In this document: one piece after another, positions 3,732-24,896 of the stretch | Layout of the letters: each line of letters starts with the position of its first letter | Numbering within the stretch: position 1 is the first letter of the stretch | IMG/VR virus record: IMGVR_UViG_3300005099_000002 | Span: 1-24,896 of that record | DNA: 24,896 nucleotides | Origin: a virus | Reading direction: 5' to 3' (one strand) | Notes under the pieces: model-generated | What the model was told of the DNA's origin: nothing | What the model saw: only the letters and a program-made list of their open reading frames with translations | Databases searched by the model: none | Translations under genes and position numbers: made by a program

Positions 3732-5041
3732 GCGGTTCCCCTCCTGTAATATTCGTCCATGAGTTCTTCGAAAATTGCCTGTAAAATCATTTTAAGGTCG
3801 AACGGCGAGGTCGCCATAGTGCTGTGCAGGTCTATTTTAGGTTCAAGTCGGATAACGGTGTAGCTCGGGGAGCCCGGTGGCGTAATGTTTAAGACGGGTG
3901 TAATTTTGTTGACGGTTTTCCGTACGCCGCCGGTGAAAGCTTCTCCGAGTTCTTTACCGTATATTACGATGTTTTTAAGTGGGCCGCGTTCCGGTAGGCT
4001 GCCGCCGAAAAACCCGGCCAACCACTCGGTGAAGTTTTTTACTTGTTCTTCCGCGTAGGTCTTTGCTTTTTCAAACCCGCTTACAAACCATTCAATCAGT
4101 TTTTTACCGGCTTCCATCATCCAGTCTTTTAAACTCGTGAACCAGTCGAGTAAACCGTGTATGGCGTCTTTAGCGTAGTTTGCTGCTGCTTTCCAGTCGC
4201 CGCGAAAAACAGCTTTAACTATGCCAAGCGCGTCTTTTACTAAACGCAGTTGCAGTTTAAGTGACGCGGCGAGTGGTTTGGGTAAACGGTTTAAAACCCC
4301 GCTAACCGTGTTTTCAATTGTTCTCCAATCTCCAGTCCAGACAGCTTTAATAAGGGTCGTTGTTTTCTGCCACGCAGTTTTTAAACTAGATAAAAACTTA
4401 GGGATATTAGTGCTTAGCCAGTCAACTACTATTTTTGTTTTATCTCTTATGCCGAGCCAGTTGTTTTGCCACGCCACGTAAAGTAAGGCTCCCGCGGCGA
4501 TAACAAGGCCGATAACGGGGATAAGTGTGGACATGGATACTCCTAGGACGGTTACGCCGCCGGCGGCTGCACCTGCACCTAAACCCACCGCGGACAGTAA
4601 AGGCCCTAACGCTCCGAGAAAACTTATTACGGGTCCTAGAACGGCGGTAAGTAAAACAACCATGCTTATAAACTGTTGTACGGGTTCCGGTAAGCTAACA
4701 AACCAATCCACCAGTTTACCGAGTAAATTGGCTACGGTTTCAAAAACCGGGCCGAGCTCCTCGCCTAAAACGTAATATACGCGTTCCATTTGGAACTGCA
4801 TTTCAGCCATAGCCACGCTCAAAGTGGGTGACGCTCTTATCATGGCGTACATTGTACCCATTGCGGCGGCGGAAACACTCATAAAAGCGAGATGCCATGT
4901 TCTGAAGGCTTTTTTACTCTCGGTTTCAGCTTCTTTCAGTTCGCCGCGGAATTCTTTTAAGATTTTTTGGGCTGTTTGCAGGTTTTTAACCGCGGCACCT
5001 ATTTCTGCTTCTAGTACGATTTTAAGTTGTTCTACATCCAT
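3728..5041 (-). CDS. Tape measure protein (short, 437 aa)
   Basis: Helical Ala/Leu/Gly-rich, central hydrophobic segment, periodic Trp/Phe, position after chaperone genes. Confidence 0.85.
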   Translation of the reverse strand: MDVEQLKIVLEAEIGAAVKNLQTAQKILKEFRGELKEAETESKKAFRTWHLAFMSVSAAAMGTMYAMIRASPTLSVAMAEMQFQMERVYYVLGEELGPVFETVANLLGKLVDWFVSLPEPVQQFISMVVLLTAVLGPVISFLGALGPLLSAVGLGAGAAAGGVTVLGVSMSTLIPVIGLVIAAGALLYVAWQNNWLGIRDKTKIVVDWLSTNIPKFLSSLKTAWQKTTTLIKAVWTGDWRTIENTVSGVLNRLPKPLAASLKLQLRLVKDALGIVKAVFRGDWKAAANYAKDAIHGLLDWFTSLKDWMMEAGKKLIEWFVSGFEKAKTYAEEQVKNFTEWLAGFFGGSLPERGPLKNIVIYGKELGEAFTGGVRKTVNKITPVLNITPPGSPSYTVIRLEPKIDLHSTMATSPFDLKMILQAIFEELMDEYYRRGTA

Positions 5042-5618: not shown

Positions 5619-5980
5619 TTTTTTTTCTCGGCTTCCGGTAAATCAGTTAACTCCCGGATGGTTTCATAGAGTAGTTCGAAAAGTTCACCGTTAAGCTGTT
5701 TGACTTGTTCGAACGTCATTTTCCGGTTTTCCCGTAGGGCTCCGGCCATAATCATGAGGGCTTTCATTTTGACTACGCTGAAACCTTTGAACTTTATTTG
5801 ACCGGTTTCCATGTTAACGTCGTATAGGGCACATTTTTCCCGTATTTCTTCGTACTCGTAGCGGGTTAAGCCTCTACATTGAAATTTTACGCCGTTGTAT
5901 TCTACGGTTTTTTCTCCGGGTTTGAAGAAAACTTCGTTCACGGGTAGCTCGCCTCGCTGTCCACCACTACTATCTGACAT
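5576..5980 (-). CDS. Tail assembly chaperone (gpG-like)
   Basis: Between tail tube and TMP; ends near slippery GAG AAA AAA AAA; alternative GTG start at 5941 overlapping the tube stop. Confidence 0.8.
   Translation of the reverse strand: MSDSSGGQRGELPVNEVFFKPGEKTVEYNGVKFQCRGLTRYEYEEIREKCALYDVNMETGQIKFKGFSVVKMKALMIMAGALRENRKMTFEQVKQLNGELFELLYETIRELTDLPEAEKKKYGVISMASEDLIK
5618..5626 (-). promoter_or_regulatory. Programmed -1 ribosomal frameshift slippery site (A9)
   Basis: T9 on + strand; fits X XXY YYZ; -1 frame stays open for 72 codons. Confidence 0.7.
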
Positions 5981-6846
5981 GTTTTAGGTTTCAAAACCAG
6001 TTTTTGCAAATATACGGGTTCCTCCGGTAACGCGAAGTCCGGTTCCTCGATTAGACAATCGTTTAACTTTAATGTTAACGTGTCGTTTGCACCGCGTGTA
6101 AAAACTATTTCAACGTCGAAGGCTGTCTGCGGGTCGCTTAACCAGTTATCCCACCAAGAGGTGTCCGTTGGGTGAAACTCTACGACTAGGTCGTTTTCAC
6201 GGCCGCCTTCCGGTAGAAAACTGGGTTTAGCGGACCCTAAATGGTACGCGTGGTCGTATTTCAAATTGTTGGAGAAAGTCCACGAGAAACTTTTAACGCT
6301 GCCTATACTGTTACCGCCGAAAGTTATACTGCTTACCTTCGCGAAACTGTAAGGTTTCGTTGTCACTTCTGCGACAGATGTGCGAGAAGTGTATTTTTTA
6401 ACGTCCATGGCACTGCAGTCTACGCGAACCTTAAGGTCGTCGCCTTCAACACAGCTAATAGTCATCTTGTCGACTTTGCAGCCGAGGTAACGCCGCACAA
6501 AATTGATACTCGGCAAAGCCGCTTCCAATGTGAAGGTTGGCAGTTGGTCAGCGGGGTCAATGGTATGTGTATAAGGGCCCGACCCACTGTCTGTCACCGT
6601 GCCGAGACACATCGTTAGAAACTTGCCGTCTTGCGGATAATATTCGAAGGAAAAAGGAAACTCATATTTTCCTTCTGTTTGAATGTGGAAGTCTCTTTTT
6701 CCTGCATGCCGGTAACGGCGTATTTCACGTTTTTCTTTTGGCGGAAACTCTTTAACTATGCCGAGCCAAACGTTTGGTGTGGCTTCGGTTCCGGGCGAGG
6801 ATTCACGTCCCCATGAAATATACCAAGGTCCGGTTGCATAGCTCAT
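5938..6846 (-). CDS. Major tail tube protein
   Basis: GRES.PGT..., FTLE...RRYLGCKVDKMTIS, VKSFSWTFSNNL motifs typical of tail tube proteins; 302 aa; position. Confidence 0.85.
   Translation of the reverse strand: MSYATGPWYISWGRESSPGTEATPNVWLGIVKEFPPKEKREIRRYRHAGKRDFHIQTEGKYEFPFSFEYYPQDGKFLTMCLGTVTDSGSGPYTHTIDPADQLPTFTLEAALPSINFVRRYLGCKVDKMTISCVEGDDLKVRVDCSAMDVKKYTSRTSVAEVTTKPYSFAKVSSITFGGNSIGSVKSFSWTFSNNLKYDHAYHLGSAKPSFLPEGGRENDLVVEFHPTDTSWWDNWLSDPQTAFDVEIVFTRGANDTLTLKLNDCLIEEPDFALPEEPVYLQKLVLKPKTCQIVVVDSEASYP
6361..6376. repeat. Dispersed palindrome copy (2 mismatches)
   Basis: TGTCACT-TC-TGCGACA, inside tail tube gene. Confidence 0.6.
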
Positions 6847-7804: not shown

Positions 7805-8095
7805 ATGGTATGGCAAAAAGTCATAGACGCGGCATACAATGATAAGGGTGACAAGTGCTTACTTTTACAAAATAAGGCTGGAAAAACCTATTGGATAAAC
7901 CTTTATAAATTCACCGACCCCGAAGGAGCCGGCGAAAAAGTATTCAGATTTGTTCTTGAGTCTCAGACCGAAGGCCCCTTAGACGATATAATGGCCGAAG
8001 TCTGGATAAATATAAGTTTTTCACACAAATTTATAGTGGCTTGTAGATTACCTAAGCCTATAAAATCAGATAAAATAATAAATGCGAGATGGTAA
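7805..8095 (+). CDS. Hypothetical protein (antisense accessory gene)
   Basis: 96 aa ORF with own promoter and RBS. Confidence 0.75.
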   Translation: MVWQKVIDAAYNDKGDKCLLLQNKAGKTYWINLYKFTDPEGAGEKVFRFVLESQTEGPLDDIMAEVWINISFSHKFIVACRLPKPIKSDKIINARW

Positions 8096-13881: not shown

Positions 13882-14011
13882 TTAAGTGGGCCTCTTTTAG
13901 TTTTTTATGGGTTTCACGGTTGTCTGCGATTAGTATGGTGCCGCAGTAAGGGCACACCCAAATATAGGCTTCTCTATCCCTAAGCAGCGTGTTAAGTTCT
14001 TTTAGACCCAT
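13862..14011 (-). CDS. Zn-finger-like protein (49 aa; not in ORF track)
   Basis: MGLKELNTLLRDREAYIWVCPYCGTILIADNRETHKKLKEAHLNECSKS; overlaps portal stop and next start. Confidence 0.65.
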   Translation of the reverse strand: MGLKELNTLLRDREAYIWVCPYCGTILIADNRETHKKLKEAHLNECSKS

Positions 14012-16433
14012 TTTTGCCACCATTTTTTATTATTCCGAAGAGTTTAAGCCAACTGTAAACGGCAAAATGAGTTACACCGAGTTCGTCGGCAATTTTACGC
14101 GTACTTAAACCGCTACTATATTTTTCCCGCAAATAATCATATATATTAATGTTGTATTTTTGTTCGAGTTCAATCATGGTCTTTGTTTTTTTGATGTAGC
14201 GGCCGTCTTCGGTTAGAATCGCGTTTTTACTTATTATTGGTACGATTGTGCAGCGGCAGTTTGGATGTAAGGGTGGTACGTCTATTTGGCCGAAACGCGG
14301 CGAAATAAACTTAGCTAGCAGCGGTACTTTTTGGTTGGCCATTTCAAGGCAGTCGGGACACGTACGGTCATCGTAGGTTACAATCCACTGTTTGCCTTCG
14401 ACCACGTCTGATTTTTGGTAGCCGATTAAACGGCCCATATTCGACGCTCTTATTGTCTCGGTGCGTGCGATTCTCTCGGCTTCCCAGTCCGTTAACGTGC
14501 TAAACTCCTCTTTTATCAGCTCGCCCATTTTATCTATTGATAGGCCGGTTTGCAGGCCTTCGATTAAAACGTTTCTTATACGGTCTCTTACTTGTTCATA
14601 TTTGGATGTGGCTAAGAGCTGCGTATAGGTTTCAATGTAATGTACGGCTAACGGGTCCTCCAAGTCGAAGGTGGCCTCTAAGTTGAGTTCTTGGGCGGCT
14701 TTACGGAAACCTAGCAAAATGGCGTTTAACATGTATTTTTTAAGGAACTCTTTGAACTCTTGGGCGTGGCCGCTTAAAACCTTTTCAATAAGGTCCCGGA
14801 AAACTTTAACATCCTTTTCCAGTAGGGGTTTACCGTTAAGCTGTTTCATGGCTTCCGCGAATTTCTCGCTTTTAAGGAAATTTATGAGTTCGTTTACATG
14901 TTTTTTAAAAAGTTTTTGTAGGTCTTCGGTGAACTTTTTTTCGAAGGTTTTTAGGCCCCATATTTCCCGTGGGTCCCGTGGGTCGCTGCTTGGGTTGGGG
15001 AGTTTGTAGAATTCGTCGCGGTGTGTCACATGTGTGACATTGGTCTCGGTGTTCTCGCTCGGTATAATGGGATTATCGGTTGTTAGGGCTTTTTTATTTG
15101 CGAGTGTTATTGGCGGTATTGATGGTTGTGTTCCGGTTACGGATTCGAACGGGTAGTTTTGCGGCATAAAAAGGGGTCTGTTTCCCCATGGAACCGGGTC
15201 TAACCCCATTTCTCGGCGGACTTCGTTTATTGTTTTAAGGCCGGTTCTTATTTCACGTTCCCATATTGCTATTTGCCGTTCTTTTTCGAAACGGTCGCGG
15301 TGCGGTGCAAACTTAAACATAACGTCGTCGAAACCGAACTCCGGAATAATCTCCGTGTTAATGTGATATTCTAAAAGTCTCAGTAAGGGTCCTAGTCCTT
15401 TACGTCGGAAAACTTCGCTTTGCTCCTCGCTTGTGGCCCGGTTAACTGTCTCCGTTAATCCCAGCTCGTTCGGTGTAACTTTGAACGCGGCCATTACGAG
15501 CTTGAAATACCATCTTTGACTTTCTAAGAACTGCATTTCTTTATTTGTAAGCGTAAACTGCTGCCATTTAAAATCACGGTTAATGATAGGTAGTTTGTGG
15601 GGTTTTCCTTTTACTTCGGTTTCCCACCATCTAATAAAGTTCTCAAACTCTGTTTCACTTATGTCCAATAAAGATAGTACGCCGCTGGGTATGCTTTCGC
15701 TGAAATATTTCTCGTTCCACTCTAAGCTTTTAATTAAGGTTTTTACGACGGTTAAAATGGATTGTACAGGTGAGAAACCGTAACAAGAATAAGAACGCGG
15801 ATTTTGCATAATATAGACGATTTCTTTTTCCGTGAAAAATATCGGTTTTGATTGCGGGTTTTTAAAACTATACTGATAGTAGCCCTGTACCACGCCGTGT
15901 TCATCAACCTTTTTAAGAAATGTGGCTCCGTCTGCGGCGTAAATTTCACGTAGTTGGCTTTTTTCGTCGAAAACCTTAACGATAACACCGGCATCTATCT
16001 CCAAGATGTCTCTTACGACTTGCCGTAATATTTGTTCGAAGCTTTCATCGTTAATGTTGGGGTTTTCGAAAAACCGTTTAACTATACGGCAGTGTTCTAA
16101 AACGATGGGGTTGTTGACGTGTTTCGGGTCCTTTGGAACAATGTCCCATTCTACGCTGCAAACCTCGTCGATAAGAGTGTCGATACATATTCGGCACCAC
16201 GCGGTTTGAGCCATTTCCCGTATTTCGTAGATGTTTACTTTCCGCGGGACACCGTAAGGTGCACGCCAAAACCAGTGGGGCGTAACGGTTTTACGGTAAC
16301 TTCTTTTTTCTTTTACACCTTGATAAACCGTTATATTTTGATAGGCGGCGTCGACTACGCCCTTCTCCACCGTATCATAGGTTAATGTAGGGTTTTGTTT
16401 CGACCGTTTAAAAAACTTGAATATACGCGACAT
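13992..16433 (-). CDS. Portal protein fused to MuF (SPP1 gp7-like) domain and C-terminal HTH
   Basis: HK97-type portal motifs (YGFSP, EMQFLE, FKVTPNELG); MuF motifs (AERIARTET, DDRTCPDC, PPLHPNCRC); HTH GLSTRKIADELGVTHFAVYSWLK. Confidence 0.92.
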   Translation of the reverse strand: MSRIFKFFKRSKQNPTLTYDTVEKGVVDAAYQNITVYQGVKEKRSYRKTVTPHWFWRAPYGVPRKVNIYEIREMAQTAWCRICIDTLIDEVCSVEWDIVPKDPKHVNNPIVLEHCRIVKRFFENPNINDESFEQILRQVVRDILEIDAGVIVKVFDEKSQLREIYAADGATFLKKVDEHGVVQGYYQYSFKNPQSKPIFFTEKEIVYIMQNPRSYSCYGFSPVQSILTVVKTLIKSLEWNEKYFSESIPSGVLSLLDISETEFENFIRWWETEVKGKPHKLPIINRDFKWQQFTLTNKEMQFLESQRWYFKLVMAAFKVTPNELGLTETVNRATSEEQSEVFRRKGLGPLLRLLEYHINTEIIPEFGFDDVMFKFAPHRDRFEKERQIAIWEREIRTGLKTINEVRREMGLDPVPWGNRPLFMPQNYPFESVTGTQPSIPPITLANKKALTTDNPIIPSENTETNVTHVTHRDEFYKLPNPSSDPRDPREIWGLKTFEKKFTEDLQKLFKKHVNELINFLKSEKFAEAMKQLNGKPLLEKDVKVFRDLIEKVLSGHAQEFKEFLKKYMLNAILLGFRKAAQELNLEATFDLEDPLAVHYIETYTQLLATSKYEQVRDRIRNVLIEGLQTGLSIDKMGELIKEEFSTLTDWEAERIARTETIRASNMGRLIGYQKSDVVEGKQWIVTYDDRTCPDCLEMANQKVPLLAKFISPRFGQIDVPPLHPNCRCTIVPIISKNAILTEDGRYIKKTKTMIELEQKYNINIYDYLREKYSSGLSTRKIADELGVTHFAVYSWLKLFGIIKNGGKNGSKRT
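15024..15039. repeat. Dispersed palindrome copy (perfect)
   Basis: TGTCACA-TG-TGTGACA, in portal-MuF linker. Confidence 0.9.
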
Positions 16434-18831: not shown

Positions 18832-19149
18832 TTATTCACCTTTATAGTGCGATAAATCTACCCATGGCTGAACATAGCCACAATAAGGGCAAACCGCTAA
18901 GTCTGCGGGAATAGCAGCTTCGCATTTCGGGCAAAATTTAAACTCTTTTTTCTTTGTTTTTTCCACGTGACATACCGTGTCGTCCAACCGTCTAAGACTG
19001 TACAAATATAAGATAAACGCTAATAGCCACGTTAATTCAATGAAAGGAGTATTTACATCAAGTATGTCGCTGGGGTCCGGTATAATCGCCAATAAAAAAA
19101 TAAGAAAAATAATGAAAAACTCATGTTTTCTTAGTCTTATTTTAATCAC
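18832..19149 (-). CDS. Membrane protein with C-terminal double Zn ribbon
   Basis: Two hydrophobic segments around IPDPSDILD; FCPKC...VCPYCG. Confidence 0.75.
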   Translation of the reverse strand: MIKIRLRKHEFFIIFLIFLLAIIPDPSDILDVNTPFIELTWLLAFILYLYSLRRLDDTVCHVEKTKKKEFKFCPKCEAAIPADLAVCPYCGYVQPWVDLSHYKGE

Positions 19150-20086
19150 CCAGCTCGTTTATTGGAATTATGTATTGGCCGTTTTCACCAACAACCATTA
19201 AAAAGATTACTTGATTGTTTGTTTCCGCTATTTTCTTTAACGCTTCCACTAAGATATATAGTTGGGCGACTTCACTCGCGTTCATGCCGCATTTTTCTGC
19301 TATAAGAGCAATAGCCTCGGCGGTTGCGTTTGCTTGTATAAGTGTGGCGTTTGCATTTGCCTGAGCGGTTATTATAACTGTGTTGGCTCGGTACATTGCC
19401 GCTATCATTTCTTGTTCCGCTGCTAACTTATCTTCAATTGCATCAATAAATTTTTGCGGCAGAGCTATCTCGCGTAAGTCTAGTTCTTCTAAGATAACCG
19501 CGTTTAACAGTGTTCTGTCGGCTGTTAACCGGTTTTCAAACTCGTTATAAAGTATGGTTCCTATTTCAGCACGTTTCTCAATCGTTTCAATAGCTGAATA
19601 ATTAGCAATAACATCTCTTACCGTTTCACGTAGAATGCTGGCTATTGTTGTCATTTTCCAATTTAACATGGGATAGTTTTTGTATAGTTCAAGTACTTTA
19701 TTCGGGTCTAGTCGCCATCGCGCCATAATGTCGACTTCCACGCTTAAACCGTCACGTGTTAAACATGGTATCGCCGGGTAGTCGCCGGTTGCGTTTCTCT
19801 CGGACCACATTTCTAAACTGTCTACTGCTACATACACATATTTTACACTGGCCCAAGGTGCTTTTTTGAAAAACAAATAAGCAGCGTAGGTTCCGTCACC
19901 AACCGCCCACATTTCTTGGCTAATCGGGTCAATAATAATAGCCGTATAACCAACCTTAACATGCACGGTTGTGCACACTATAAGTATCGGTGTCCCTATA
20001 AGTACAAAAAGTACCAGTACTGCAACCGTGCTTTTCAAAACGTTTTTTATTTTGGAACGCTTAAATATTCGTTTTTCATTCCACAT
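19142..20086 (-). CDS. SPFH/prohibitin (band 7) membrane protein
   Basis: N-terminal TM, TRDGLSVEVDIMARWRL, RETVRDVIANY, LREIALPQKFIDAIEDKLAAEQE, Ala-rich coiled coil. Confidence 0.92.
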   Translation of the reverse strand: MWNEKRIFKRSKIKNVLKSTVAVLVLFVLIGTPILIVCTTVHVKVGYTAIIIDPISQEMWAVGDGTYAAYLFFKKAPWASVKYVYVAVDSLEMWSERNATGDYPAIPCLTRDGLSVEVDIMARWRLDPNKVLELYKNYPMLNWKMTTIASILRETVRDVIANYSAIETIEKRAEIGTILYNEFENRLTADRTLLNAVILEELDLREIALPQKFIDAIEDKLAAEQEMIAAMYRANTVIITAQANANATLIQANATAEAIALIAEKCGMNASEVAQLYILVEALKKIAETNNQVIFLMVVGENGQYIIPINELGD

Positions 20087-20093
20087 TTATTTT

Positions 20094-20558
20094 TCACCTC
20101 CCTTTAGGTTTATAATAGGGGCAGAAGTTTGGTTTTTCGGGTGCGTGGCCTTTACGGAGACAGTCTTCCAGCCACTCGCACCCGTGGCATATAAGTTTTT
20201 CACGGGGCTTTACGGACGTGTAATATTCGCCCCGCGTTATTTTTCTAACACGGTACAGGTAGCGGGCGGAAAAACTGCCGTAATATTTTTTCACTTCGTC
20301 GACCCATTCACGTACGGTTTTAAACCCGGAGTTTTCCACGTAGCTTTCCAGTTCTTCGGGTGATTCGATTTTCTTCACGAATTTAATGTAAACGTAACAT
20401 AGAAACTCTACGTATCGCCGTTTAAAGCTTCCTTTAACAGCTTTTGCTTTTCCTTCCCGCCTCGGGTAACGTAACGTGTAAACAAAACCGTGTTTAAGCA
20501 GGTGTTCCCGCGGACCCTTACTGTTAAAAAATATAACTCCGTTTTTCGGCCGCTTCAC
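20094..20558 (-). CDS. ASCH/PUA-like domain protein with Cys-rich tail
   Basis: VYTLR...LESYVENSGFKTVREW pattern resembles ASCH; C-terminal CxxC..C..C. Confidence 0.5.
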   Translation of the reverse strand: MKRPKNGVIFFNSKGPREHLLKHGFVYTLRYPRREGKAKAVKGSFKRRYVEFLCYVYIKFVKKIESPEELESYVENSGFKTVREWVDEVKKYYGSFSARYLYRVRKITRGEYYTSVKPREKLICHGCEWLEDCLRKGHAPEKPNFCPYYKPKGR

Positions 20559-20962
20559 CTGCTCTCACCTCTACTTTTTTCGCGGACCCACATTCGACGA
20601 GCTGAAACCCATTTAAACCCGATTTTCCTAAGTTTTTCGTTTATGTTGTTCCATGCGTCGCGGCCCAGCCAGCCGCTCGGTATAATTATGTCTTTGTTTT
20701 CCGTAGACGTGAAGGAAACTTTACGTCGCTCTTCCGCTGAAAGAACGCTCTTAGGACACACGGTTAGAGTGGGTTGTTCTACTGGTTTTTCCGGCGGCCC
20801 GAAAAGACTAAGCTTTAAAATCATTTTCATGGTTGCAAGCACAGCTATACGGTGCTCCCTCTTGTCTTCTTCTTTGAGGTTAGGGAACCATTTATCTACG
20901 AGTTCAACCGCCAAACTATGGATGGCTTCCATTTTTTCTTTTTCGTTTATTTTTCCCACCAC
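20555..20962 (-). CDS. Hypothetical protein
   Basis: 135 aa, coupled overlaps, C-terminal WNNINEKLRKIGFKW...W motif. Confidence 0.7.
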   Translation of the reverse strand: MVGKINEKEKMEAIHSLAVELVDKWFPNLKEEDKREHRIAVLATMKMILKLSLFGPPEKPVEQPTLTVCPKSVLSAEERRKVSFTSTENKDIIIPSGWLGRDAWNNINEKLRKIGFKWVSARRMWVREKSRGESR

Positions 20963-21615
20963 GCTTTTCGAAGTGTTTTAACATTAACATTCGTGAATTT
21001 TTTAAGCTCGGAAATTAGCCACTTGGTTTTTTCCAGCTCGGGTTCCGGTAGCTTATGGTTGTAGTTGTCGTAGCCCACGTAGACCGTTCGCGGATTTATT
21101 TTTTCTAGGAAGTTAACGAACACGTTGTTGAAATCTAAAATCGGCTCTATTGCTATGAACTTATCATCCCACGGCAGTTTTTTCATTGCCAATAGACGTT
21201 CCATTGGGTGCGGTGCGTCGCTTACATCCCAGTCTCGGTCGCTTTCAATAGTGGCCCCTAAAATAACGTTCGACGGGAAAAGTTCGAGAAAATCAAAATA
21301 TCTTAAAGGGTTTTTTGTTAAAAGAAGAAACCGGCTGTCCGGGTTTTTTTCAATGGTATGTAAAACCTGTACAATCCACGTGTCCGGAACCTCGTAACAA
21401 AACAAGTCACCCATGTCGACCACAAAAACTATTTTATTTTTAAACCGACGGTTCAAACGCTCAGGATGTAAATGTGGAACAAACCTGTAACATTTTTTGC
21501 AGCGGTTTTTTTGACGCCTAGCTAAACGGCGAGCCCAACAGTAACAACAATTATGTGTGCAGCCGACCACAGGGTTCCATGTAACTTTAACCATGCTAAA
21601 CATGCGGCTTGTCAA
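20947..21615 (-). CDS. DUF5131 (phage Gp37/Gp68) radical-SAM-like protein
   Basis: TWNPVVGCTHNCCYCWA (CxxxCxxC), VFVVDMGDLF, LLTKNP, IEPIL signatures. Confidence 0.9.
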   Translation of the reverse strand: MTSRMFSMVKVTWNPVVGCTHNCCYCWARRLARRQKNRCKKCYRFVPHLHPERLNRRFKNKIVFVVDMGDLFCYEVPDTWIVQVLHTIEKNPDSRFLLLTKNPLRYFDFLELFPSNVILGATIESDRDWDVSDAPHPMERLLAMKKLPWDDKFIAIEPILDFNNVFVNFLEKINPRTVYVGYDNYNHKLPEPELEKTKWLISELKKFTNVNVKTLRKAWWEK

Positions 21616-23561: not shown

Positions 23562-23573
23562 TTTTTTATTTTT
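23562..23573 (+). terminator. Oligo-T terminator between convergent genes
   Basis: TTTTTTATTTTT after stop. Confidence 0.4.
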
Positions 23574-24250
23574 TAGTATGGCCATTCACTTAGTATATAC
23601 AGGTTTTTTTGTTGTCTTGTTAGCATGACTAGTTCTGGGAGATATGTTTTTTCCGGTAGTTCTACGCAGAAGTTTACGTCTTCTACTTGGCCCAGCGGAT
23701 TGACTAAAACTTTGTATGGTGTGTCGACTTCGGGGTCTCTTATTTCGAAAACTGTTTTTCCACCGGCAAGTACTTTAAGCGGCTGGTATTCGATGTTTAG
23801 CAGGTTTAGTAGTGTAAATATTTTTTCTCGGCTTAGCTGATTTACCTCGGCGATACGTAGTAGTGCTTTTACTTCTTTTTCAGTTAAGGCTCTAAGCATT
23901 ATTAAGGGCAGGAAAATCGGGGTTCTAGGGCCTTTAAGCGTTATACCCATAGCATAACAGTTATTCAACGTTTCCGCGGCCTCATAGTCCGGAAAAACAT
24001 ATATGTACGGCGGTACGATTTCACGGGTTTTAAGCTGTGGATTTAAAGCCTCATTTACTATAAATCGGCGGCGAAACTTTAAATCTCTTAAACGATATAT
24101 TATAGCTGCCGGCCGATAAATCCATGAATCAACAAGACCGACAAACATATTAAAATGGTTATCTGGCGATTTATAGCCTAAAATACGGGTTCCATCACTA
24201 TTGTAAAAAACGGGAAAACGTGAATAACCTATTATAGCTAACATCTTCAT
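23573..24250 (-). CDS. Hypothetical protein coupled to the ThiF-like gene
   Basis: 225 aa; ATGA overlap with upstream stop; no recognised domain. Confidence 0.8.
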   Translation of the reverse strand: MKMLAIIGYSRFPVFYNSDGTRILGYKSPDNHFNMFVGLVDSWIYRPAAIIYRLRDLKFRRRFIVNEALNPQLKTREIVPPYIYVFPDYEAAETLNNCYAMGITLKGPRTPIFLPLIMLRALTEKEVKALLRIAEVNQLSREKIFTLLNLLNIEYQPLKVLAGGKTVFEIRDPEVDTPYKVLVNPLGQVEDVNFCVELPEKTYLPELVMLTRQQKNLYILSEWPY

Positions 24251-24896
24251 TTACCTCGTAGCCTTTTACCATAATTGTTTATGTCACGTTTAAGTTGTGC
24301 AACCCGCACCTTATCTTTTAAATCTATTATGAACGCTGTTTTCTCGTTTTTTTCAAGCCATTGCTTAAACGCGTAATATGTGTATGCTGCTGCCATGAGT
24401 CCTAGGCCGCGGAACTCTAAGCGGCTGCAAACATCCCGTATTTTTTCAAGCTCTTTTTTTACTTTGGCGATTTTACCGGGGTCCACGGGGACCATTACCC
24501 ATTCACCCCAATCAATGTAAACATGATTTTCCGTGACCCCGATAAAAAGACTAGGTGTACGTGTATATGTTATGTAGCCTTTCGCCATTAGCCGCGACTC
24601 AATGTTATCGAAAGTTACAAAAACAAAGTCGGGTTTAAACCGTTTATGCAGTTCAATTAGCTGCGACGCCTTTTTCACATGTAGGTGTCTCGGTACAACC
24701 GTAACCGATGACAACACCTGTATTAAAGCGGCTAAAGCTGAAACTTTACGTTTACCTTCATAGCCTTTAGGAAAAATACTGCTTTCATAGTTGCCGCGTT
24801 CAATCTTATCGCCATCGATTAAGATTATTTCACTGGCGTGCGGTAAAATAAAAGGTATTATGTGGCTTGCTAGGAAGCCGCAGCCCAAGAACATTA
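24247..24896 (-). CDS. ThiF/MoeB/E1-family adenylating enzyme (N-terminus probably cut by window edge)
   Basis: LGCGFLAS Rossmann loop, IDGDKIERGN, GKRKV, FDN..SR match E1-fold ATP-binding motifs; no CxxC Zn pairs. Confidence 0.85.
   Translation of the reverse strand, partial: MFLGCGFLASHIIPFILPHASEIILIDGDKIERGNYESSIFPKGYEGKRKVSALAALIQVLSSVTVVPRHLHVKKASQLIELHKRFKPDFVFVTFDNIESRLMAKGYITYTRTPSLFIGVTENHVYIDWGEWVMVPVDPGKIAKVKKELEKIRDVCSRLEFRGLGLMAAAYTYYAFKQWLEKNEKTAFIIDLKDKVRVAQLKRDINNYGKRLRGK

Follow-up and report, generated by a model that had tools for sequence, protein, structure and literature searches.

Why would a virus carry an E1-like adenylating enzyme next to a gene whose product belongs to no recognised family? 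The question is raised by one end of IMGVR_UViG_3300005099_000002, a linear IMG/VR record of 24,896 bp that is ~70% complete and was analysed in its entirety (hereafter the window). Judged from its gene content, the source is a tailed virus, with genes for a portal-MuF fusion, an S78 prohead protease, an HK97-type capsid protein and a tail tube. A ThiF/E1-like gene at the end of the window overlaps the gene of a 225-aa (amino acid) partner, and an earlier sequence-only reading had proposed that the two form the tail of a viral operon for ubiquitin-like protein (Ubl) conjugation, peptide modification or counter-defence that runs on past position 24896. Because the window spans the whole record, this continuation was testable in relatives only. 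Comparison with some 20 related loci placed both genes, with high confidence, as the last two genes of a mobile archaeal cassette that also encodes a small Gly-ended protein, a vWA protein and small stem-closed RNAs. We give a slightly better than even chance to the interpretation that this cassette is a Ubl-E1-E2-like conjugation module attached to a particle resembling Ro60 and its Y RNAs.

The E1-like enzyme and its cassette

Both open reading frames (ORFs) proposed for the end of the window proved real, as did their ATGA overlap (Table 1). The E1 frame is still open at the window end, where 'ta' precedes the ATG. The complete 35.9-kb relative IMGVR_UViG_3300014887_000001 (L002), which has terminal repeats, encodes an E1 and a partner that are 95% and 92% identical to those of the window, and its E1 is only seven N-terminal residues longer, so the window gene is nearly complete. 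Pfam ThiF (PF00899) matched the window E1 at E=8e-8 with 32.1 bits and the full-length L002 protein with 34.3 bits (cut-off 28.1). The window copy contains the motifs GCGFLA, IDGDKIERGN, GKRK and FDNIESR. An alignment of 26 members showed that G10, C11, G12, D33, E38, N41, K49, K56, D102 and N103 (L002 numbering) are invariant and R107 nearly so, and that G10, G12, D33, K56, D102 and N103 align with their equivalents in MccB. The ATP site therefore keeps its Rossmann loop, ribose-binding Asp, phosphate-binding Lys and, in the 'DN' motif, the Asp that binds Mg; it lacks the Arg of a canonical 'NLxRQ', N44 and K49 being conserved in its stead. Since the window protein has only two Cys residues (5 and 156), there are no zinc-binding CxxC pairs. 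The second Cys, in the motif RDVC, is invariant in the 26 sequences and lies ~150 residues past the G-loop, as do Cys187 in MoeB and Cys184 in ThiF. The E1 fold, the adenylation motifs, the missing CxxC pairs and the downstream Cys that had been read from the sequence were thus all supported. The proposed DxDxxExxN motif held in its first Asp, its Glu and its Asn, whereas its second Asp is not conserved (relatives have DRE).

The enzymes form a small and distinct family of ~43 clusters that are 42-62% identical and 200-220 aa long. A profile search of the PDB retrieved MccB (2.4e-7), UBA2 (3e-5), BubCD (2.7e-4) and UBA5 (7e-4), and none of the MoeB, ThiF or TcdA structures at E<=0.01. Scans of PHROG, NCBIfam and PADLOC gave weak matches only: the NCBIfam ThiF equivalog scored 15.8 bits against a cut-off of 159, and the PADLOC E1-E2 models 19.4 and 10.6 bits. 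By these sequence comparisons the protein is a member of the E1/ThiF superfamily and not a MoeB, ThiF or TcdA. A TcdA-like or MccB-like role was rejected, as there is no TcdA similarity and the terminus of the cassette's Ubl is Gly rather than Asn. The barely above-threshold match to the generic ThiF family of Pfam could also be read as a host-derived MoeB, ThiF or TcdA gene at a provirus boundary, next to an unrelated neighbour. We regard the probability of this as practically negligible in view of the PDB search that retrieved no MoeB, ThiF or TcdA, the NCBIfam score far under its cut-off, the location of the gene inside a complete viral genome with terminal repeats (L002), and the three constant protein neighbours that accompany it in unrelated contexts. 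Instead of a MoeB or TcdA in host synteny, what was found is a dedicated E1 family always within the cassette, and in place of an unrelated partner, a predicted Ubl and a predicted E2-like protein.

The ~20 loci were gathered by scanning viral, genome and metagenome collections with the E1 alignment. An all-against-all comparison of their products showed that these otherwise unrelated loci have only four proteins in common with the virus (the small protein, the vWA protein, the E1 and the partner) and one more shared with a single locus. The usual order, on one strand, is RNA gene(s), small protein, vWA protein, E1 and partner. The gene overlapping the E1 start in L002 encodes the vWA protein, and a gene for a Gly-ended protein with a predicted beta-grasp fold lies upstream of it, in agreement with the proposed viral Ubl-conjugation operon that would continue past the contig end. 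The genes of the small protein and the partner diverge from vWA-E1 in L013 and L006, and L010, L018 and L021 contain inserted genes. That the four genes stay together despite these rearrangements indicates that they work together, and constitutes the main evidence for a joint function. Inspection of the upstream region for Ubl, E2 and JAB genes was only partly rewarded: a predicted Ubl ending in Gly rather than GG and a probable E2-like partner are present, and the conserved set of the cassette contains no JAB peptidase and no RING protein.

The cassette also occurs in the chromosome of Archaeoglobus profundus DSM 5631 (980,825-984,047, with an RNA element at 980,681-980,811), within an island containing an IS607-type resolvase with TnpB, two Orc1/Cdc6 paralogues, an AAA ATPase and an ORF pair that, by eye, is presumably a VapBC-type toxin-antitoxin. 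The E1 was found in only 2 of the 96 genomes of this organism's class. A further locus (L006) belongs to a Desulfurococcaceae metagenome-assembled genome, in which the large neighbouring ORFs look cellular by eye; one of them we take to be an ABC-transporter ATPase. These chromosomal occurrences indicate that the module is mobile rather than restricted to viruses. A tblastn search of the GenBank phages in INPHARED at E<=1e-3 returned nothing for the vWA protein or the E1. A laxer search yielded one huge phage, LR756511.1 (595 kb), which matched the E1 profile with 50.9 bits and the vWA profile with 38.5 bits; its E1-like and Ro60-like ORFs share a strand, are 4.5 kb apart and adjoin 14 tRNA genes, and neither hidden Markov models nor hhalign detected counterparts of the partner and the Ubl in that locus.

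Some loci carry additional genes. A gene of ~100-110 aa without a Pfam match, whose product begins 'MR(K/R)(E/D)DAELLKKLIGK...', lies between the vWA and E1 genes in a single sub-clade (L029:7492-7794, which is A. profundus 982491-982793; L004:4486-4818; L012:1241-1582). Directly after the partner gene, L018:10595-12556 encodes a 653-aa protein that combines a polynucleotide kinase (AAA_33) with a PNK 3'-phosphatase/HAD domain, and a metallo-beta-lactamase-fold protein is encoded further downstream (L018:13997-14914). This neighbourhood gives a weak hint of RNA repair.

The Gly-ended protein and the partner

The small protein of the cassette has 65-67 residues (66 in L002), and its genes have good ribosome-binding sites. 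Its last residue is Gly in all 11 distinct loci, F65 and G66 being invariant, and the C-terminus reads '...VVYRxxAxFG', or '...AILG' in L006, so that it ends in FG or LG rather than GG. No Pfam family matched. The AlphaFold2 model is a beta-beta-alpha-beta-beta fold with a predicted local distance difference test (pLDDT) score of 85.6 that falls to 56 over the last six residues, a floppy tail. Its structural neighbours are mostly beta-grasp proteins, namely MoaD (Z 4.3), SAMP1 (4.0), CysO, Urm1, TtuB, YukD, GB1 and ubiquitin, and they include the Ubl of a bacterial E1-E2-Ubl complex. The scores are modest (Z 3-4.3, TM 0.45-0.5), as expected for only 66 residues, and the single match at Z 5.2 is the accessory protein FdhD. 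E1-type enzymes classically act on beta-grasp proteins that end in Gly and are encoded beside them.

The partner had been described as unrecognised from its sequence, and indeed it had no match in Pfam, PHROG, NCBIfam or PADLOC, and none in the ESM Atlas or in a PDB profile search. Its family comprises 44 representatives among 1.84 billion proteins and occurs in the cassette at 13 loci. The true start may be Met3, since homologues begin 'MLALIGY'. VIA-align, applied to the AlphaFold2 model, divided the protein into two domains (Table 1). The barrel aligned with RNase R (7dic_A; Z 5.4, root-mean-square deviation (rmsd) 2.1, 56 residues aligned), RumA (1uwv; Z 5.0) and RNase II (Z 4.7). The C-terminal domain aligned with Ubc9 (4y1l_C; Z 5.8, rmsd 3.1, 76 residues aligned), followed by the UEV domain of Tsg101 (5.2), FANCL (5.1), the RWD domains of Ctf19/Mcm21 (5.0), BubB in 9eav (4.7), Ubc8 (4.2) and Cap2 (3.8). 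In the model, a helix (141-150) precedes four strands (154-160, 166-171, 179-183, 188-192) and a final helix (204-213). Cys195, in the loop between the fourth strand and the last helix, is one of five residues invariant among 34 partner sequences of 23-45% identity, and Asn193 of the same D-x-N-x-C motif is at least 90% conserved among 13. On the strength of this predicted structure, we consider it fairly probable that the partner joins a minimal E2-like domain to a barrel that binds RNA or protein, and it is likely to act as the E2 of the module.

Two alternatives bear directly on these proteins. The small protein could be a sulfur carrier, forming a thiocarboxylate while the partner Cys relays a persulfide, so that the tRNA-like RNAs described below, or cellular or viral tRNAs, would be thiolated as in the TtuB/TtuC or Urm1/Uba4 precedents. 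Its nearest folds (MoaD, SAMP1, CysO, TtuB and Urm1), a domain-minimal E1 like the MoeB/ThiF-type enzymes, the tie to tRNA-like RNAs, and hyperthermophilic hosts, in which thiolation stabilises tRNA, are all in keeping with such a role. We nevertheless consider it unlikely: the conserved set is devoid of rhodanese, cysteine desulfurase and a PP-loop ATPase of the TtuA/Ncs6 type, the terminus is a single Gly after Phe or Leu instead of the GG of carriers, the E1 falls far below the NCBIfam ThiF equivalog cut-off, and the C-terminal domain of the partner resembles UBC/RWD folds.

Alternatively, there may be no relay at all, the E1 adenylating a peptide, an RNA or a metabolite, and the partner serving as a non-catalytic RNA-binding adaptor whose RWD-like domain is used for assembly. 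We judge this quite unlikely, because Cys195 is among the five invariant residues of the partner, the small protein has an invariant terminal Gly on a flexible tail, and the four genes remain together through rearrangements. It would, in turn, accord with the often non-catalytic nature of RWD/UEV domains, the partner Z scores of only 5-6, and the fact that, among solved structures, the E1 best matches MccB, which adenylates a peptide.

Table 1 Features of the E1-partner region at the end of the window
Feature	Position	Strand	Remarks
Minimal E1/ThiF-like adenylating enzyme	24247..24894	-	215 aa in the window, 222 aa in L002; Pfam ThiF
Nucleotide-binding loop GCGFLA of the E1	24868..24885	-	G-C-G invariant in 26 sequences; aligns with the GCGG loop of MccB
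Invariant Cys codon (RDVC) of the E1	24427..24429	-	Window residue 156, equal to Cys162 of L002; candidate thioester/persulfide site
Partner, 225 aa, predicted OB-like barrel and UBC/RWD-like domain	23573..24250	-	AlphaFold2 pLDDT 87, predicted template modelling score (pTM) 0.84; VIA-align
Predicted OB/S1/TRAM-like beta-barrel, residues 58-123 of the partner	23882..24079	-	VIA-align
Predicted E2/UBC/RWD-like domain, residues 139-217 of the partner	23600..23836	-	VIA-align, Ubc9 Z 5.8; helix, four strands, Cys loop, helix
Cys195 codon of the partner, motif D-x-N-x-C after the fourth strand	23666..23668	-	Candidate catalytic Cys of the E2-like domain

The vWA protein, the stem-closed RNAs and other viral genes

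The vWA protein has 495 aa in L002 and ~485 aa across the cassettes. Its metal ion-dependent adhesion site (MIDAS) is complete and invariant (D298, S300, S302, T350 and D380), and the N-terminal ~290 residues are helical, basic and rich in invariant Arg and His. When its profile was compared by hhalign with 10 archaeal TROVE proteins, columns 246-432 aligned with 310-520 at a probability of 85.5% and E 5.7e-6, the matched part comprising the last TROVE helices and the vWA domain. Among its language-model neighbours (Atlas feature scores), vWA proteins of equal size from viruses and bacteria scored 0.97, and TROVE clusters 0.94-0.96. The protein is likely to be the Ro60 analogue of the cassette; that it is a true Ro60 homologue is suggested by these sequence comparisons with moderate to low confidence. 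The RNAs provide a stronger argument for the Ro60 relationship than the protein comparison does.

The cassettes comprise one to three small RNA genes, whose products have a tRNA-like head, replaced by two hairpins in a single case. In 9 of 11 loci, ARAGORN and Rfam placed tRNA-like genes 25-600 nt before the small-protein gene and in the same orientation. The flanks of these genes pair into a closing stem in which an internal loop separates the outer helix (GCCNCC/GGNGGC) from a variable inner one. The N of the outer helix covaries as U:A, G:C or A:U (counts at one pair AU:5, UA:5 and GC:1), and the inner helix, of 8-13 bp, varies in sequence among loci while its complementarity is kept. An RNAalifold consensus contained 38 pairs, 15 of them with compensatory changes. 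Across 13 sequences, whose alignment was fitted to a covariance model and is thereby biased in favour of the stem, helix 1 was 100% paired and helix 2 86% paired, with double changes at 8 of its 12 pairs; the observed pairing and covariation values were reached by none of 500 shuffles. Full-length matches to the RNA model adjoin cassettes, apart from two weaker ones (L028 2798-2908 and L022 7628-7733), and ordinary tRNAs match at positions 26-98, the cloverleaf, only.

The heads are nearly complete cloverleaves that score 50-70 bits on the tRNA model. They have acceptor and T arms in common irrespective of the 'anticodon', and two of them have anticodon loops of 3 or 5 nt, which indicates that they are mimics rather than decoders. 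CCA or CC lies just 5' of the 3' strand of the stem in most tRNA-like heads. A YrlA-type motif, GNCGAAN0-1G, appears as GGCGAACG in four of the six elements of one subgroup. The possibility that the tRNA-like genes are integration sites or an ordinary viral tRNA array was rejected in view of the shared closing stems and acceptor/T arms, the two non-canonical anticodon loops and the fact that elements also occur within a complete viral genome. We likewise dismissed the idea that the closing stem contains a bulge-helix-bulge splicing motif, as its two unpaired stretches (3 x 5 nt) lie opposite one another.

The RNA ends raise a further alternative, in which the C-terminus of the Ubl would be transferred to an RNA hydroxyl, for example at the encoded CCA end or on another RNA bound by the Ro60-like protein, giving a protein-RNA ester. 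An acyl-adenylate is the product of the E1 reaction, as it is for aminoacyl-tRNA synthetases. The encoded CCA or CC, the OB/S1-like barrel of the partner and the oxyesters through which Bub pathways run (PMC11601596) are further points in favour of such a transfer. We consider it very unlikely, however, since the E1 and the E2-like domain alike contain an invariant Cys, which fits a thioester relay to protein, and since the CCA would have to be freed by RNA processing from its position between head and closing stem.

Several RNA elements and tRNA loci stand apart. L002:7771-7874 is an RNA gene of ~100 nt with the closing stem GCCACC/GGTGGC, two plain hairpins inside and no tRNA-like head; it has its own TATA box, TTTATATA, ~25 nt upstream and a T7 run (terminator) after it. 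The gene overlaps the listed GTG start of the vWA gene, so that the latter probably starts at the ATG at 7891. The weaker match at L028:2798-2908 corresponds to A. profundus 957,797-957,907, ~23 kb from the cassette; it scored 57.9 bits and has a tRNA-like fold with partly pairing flanks. At L022:7811-9363, a few kb downstream of the cassette, there is an ordinary tRNA gene array resembling that at L045:10171-13879 of phage LR756511.1. Both small RNA elements (4121-4255 and 5897-6000) are present in IMGVR_UViG_3300005099_000001 (L031), a 9.1-kb viral contig that ends within a vWA gene 93% identical to that of L002; its size and content are compatible with the ~11 kb missing from the virus of the window.

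Other genes of the window include a single 813-aa ORF (13992-16433, minus strand) that unites portal, MuF-like and C-terminal helix-turn-helix domains, and a gene for a viral SPFH/Band 7 protein (19142-20086, minus strand; E 7e-21). Beside the latter lies a 154-aa ORF (20094-20558), the sole non-cassette protein common to another cassette locus (L009:10514-10921, 32% identity). A DUF5131 protein of the phage Gp37/Gp68 type, with a CxxxCxxC-like Cys cluster, is encoded at 20947-21615 on the minus strand (E 2e-23; phrog_2045).

Proposed function and comparison with known systems

That the cassette runs a Ubl thioester relay is, in our estimation, somewhat more probable than that it does not. The E1 would bind ATP-Mg and adenylate the C-terminal Gly of the small protein, the sole half-step that rests on conserved catalytic motifs. 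The acyl group would then move to Cys162 of the E1 and on to Cys195 of the E2-like domain, and its final transfer would be to a target selected by the RNA-protein particle. In this particle, the small RNA would be gripped at its stem by the Ro60-like protein, docking of the E2-like protein or the substrate would fall to the tRNA-like head or the OB barrel, and the MIDAS may bind an acidic residue of the Ubl or the target. No peptidase would be required, since translation itself leaves the terminal Gly of the Ubl free.

Several results weigh against a conjugation module joined to a Ro60-like particle. On the protein side, the N-terminal 245 residues of the vWA protein were left unaligned by hhalign. 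Pfam TROVE (PF05731) matched none of nine vWA members at E<=1 and gave nothing at E<=10 in two genomes, while the same model found 16 true TROVE genes in 401 archaeal genomes, and a PDB profile search with the vWA protein returned no Ro60 structure. No E1, Ubl or E2 was found within 1.5 kb of canonical archaeal TROVE genes. As for the partner, the Pfam E2 families (UQ_con, Prok-E2_A to E, RWD and UEV) did not match any of 13 members at E<=10, and the fold search envisaged for the 225-aa protein gave nothing with Foldseek against the PDB and BFVD, though VIA-align recovered OB-like and UBC/RWD-like domains. Its E2 assignment derives from a predicted model with middling Z scores of 5-6, below 8, and its D-x-N-x-C motif is not the canonical HPN and has a shorter spacing. 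With respect to the RNAs, an Rfam scan at E<=1 reported tRNA (RF00005) only and no Y-RNA or YrlA family, GGCGAACG sits on the 3' strand of the stem whereas the bacterial motif is near the 5' end, and the stem-closed RNA was not seen in L005 and L013 within the sequence at hand. Finally, no E3 or peptidase was identified in the cassette loci, and the upstream genes of the cassette were seen in relatives, beyond the contig end of the window.

The cassette most likely serves in conflicts, between virus and host or between elements, that revolve around tRNA or RNA damage, as it is carried by tailed archaeal viruses and integrated elements and has, at one locus, a polynucleotide kinase/phosphatase neighbour. 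A more specific and distinctly tentative proposal is RNA-guided protein tagging in a virus-host tRNA conflict, by a Ro60-like/Y-RNA-like particle with its own Ubl conjugation enzymes. The tRNA-shaped RNA would serve as bait or scaffold, and the Ubl would go onto whatever engages or cleaves the tRNA mimic, or onto the RNA itself. Ro60 and Y RNAs have been known for decades with few links to effectors, PNPase in Deinococcus being the chief example, and prokaryotic Ubl conjugation has recently been shown to be active in antiviral defence. If the proposed coupling is true, it would represent a new way of choosing targets for protein tagging and a new output for Ro60-type particles, in a joined Ubl-Ro60 unit present in archaeal viruses and a cultivated archaeon, with a related gene pair in a huge phage. 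The archaeal form is simple, with an E1 of ~210 aa, a Ubl of 66 aa and no peptidase. As the cassette comes from thermophiles, its proteins should suit biochemistry and structure work, and A. profundus DSM 5631, as a living carrier, makes it possible to look for the RNAs, the particle and any conjugates.

A full-text literature search retrieved no account of Ro60/TROVE coupled to an E1 or a Ubl, and the archaeal peptidase-free Ubl and Ro60-like module is apparently unpublished. Among known systems, Ro60 (Rsr) with Y RNAs occurs in bacteria and phages, as in the rsr-yrlBA-rtcBA locus of Salmonella and the Rsr-Y RNA-PNPase assembly of Deinococcus (Chen et al. 2014, PMC4201824). Like Rsr/YrlA loci, the cassette encodes a helical and vWA/MIDAS protein of ~500 aa, together with RNAs on the same strand within a few hundred nt that have a long end-to-end stem and a tRNA-like module. 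Some cassette loci likewise have multiple RNAs, including one that is not tRNA-like, and a GNCGAANG-like sequence (GGCGAACG) occurs in the stem as in YrlA. Occurrence in viruses is another common trait, as is a polynucleotide kinase/phosphatase neighbour at one locus. In contrast to Rsr and its Y RNAs, the cassette misses the Pfam TROVE and Rfam Y-RNA models, bears its GNCGAANG-like motif on the 3' strand, has heads that are nearly complete cloverleaves, resides in archaea and archaeal viruses, and includes an E1 together with a putative Ubl and a putative E2-like protein, none of them reported for Rsr in the literature searched.

The bacterial operons Bil (BilA-D), CBASS Cap2/Cap3 and Bub mediate Ubl conjugation in phage defence (PMC10557695, PMC11601596). 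The cassette resembles them in combining a Gly-ended protein of predicted beta-grasp fold with an E1 and a predicted E2-fold protein and in being mobile and sporadic; BubCD (by sequence) and BubB (by fold) are among the matches of its proteins. It differs in having no JAB or serine peptidase, an E1 of ~210 aa with neither a fused E2 or peptidase nor a zinc site, an E2-like domain that lacks HPN and is fused to an OB-like barrel, an archaeal distribution, and a Ro60-like protein with small RNAs. With SAMP/UbaA and the TtuB/TtuC pair of Thermus, the cassette shares a (predicted) MoaD/ThiS-like beta-grasp protein, a small non-canonical E1, a link to tRNA and an archaeal or thermophilic setting. 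Those systems, however, have GG termini, are chromosomal housekeeping genes without an E2-fold partner, and are tied to sulfur transfer via TtuA/NcsA, which is absent from the cassette.

A virological parallel is provided by the Nidhogg viruses of Helarchaeota, which are reported in a preprint to encode a Ro60 (TROVE and vWA) and three ThiF/E1-like proteins (Rambo et al., 10.1101/2021.07.29.454249). Like the cassette-bearing viruses, they are tailed archaeal viruses from hydrothermal sediment. Their Ro60 and ThiF proteins are discussed separately, in terms of RNA binding and hijacking of host ubiquitin, and adjacency, a Ubl, an E2-like protein or RNAs are undescribed; the INPHARED tblastn with the proteins studied here found no close relative. 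The predicted vWA-MoxR 'FtsH ternary' conflict systems possess all parts of a Ubl tri-ligase set (Kaur et al. 2020, PMC7159879). They alone have a MoxR AAA+ ATPase, FtsH, JAB, a RING E3, a Ubl-E2 fusion and EAD adaptors, and they occur in multicellular bacteria, whereas an RNA component is present in the archaeal cassette and none is described for them (PMC7159879). What both have in common is the genomic coupling of a vWA protein with Ubl, E1 and E2 components (PMC7159879), the Ubl and E2 of the cassette being predicted ones.

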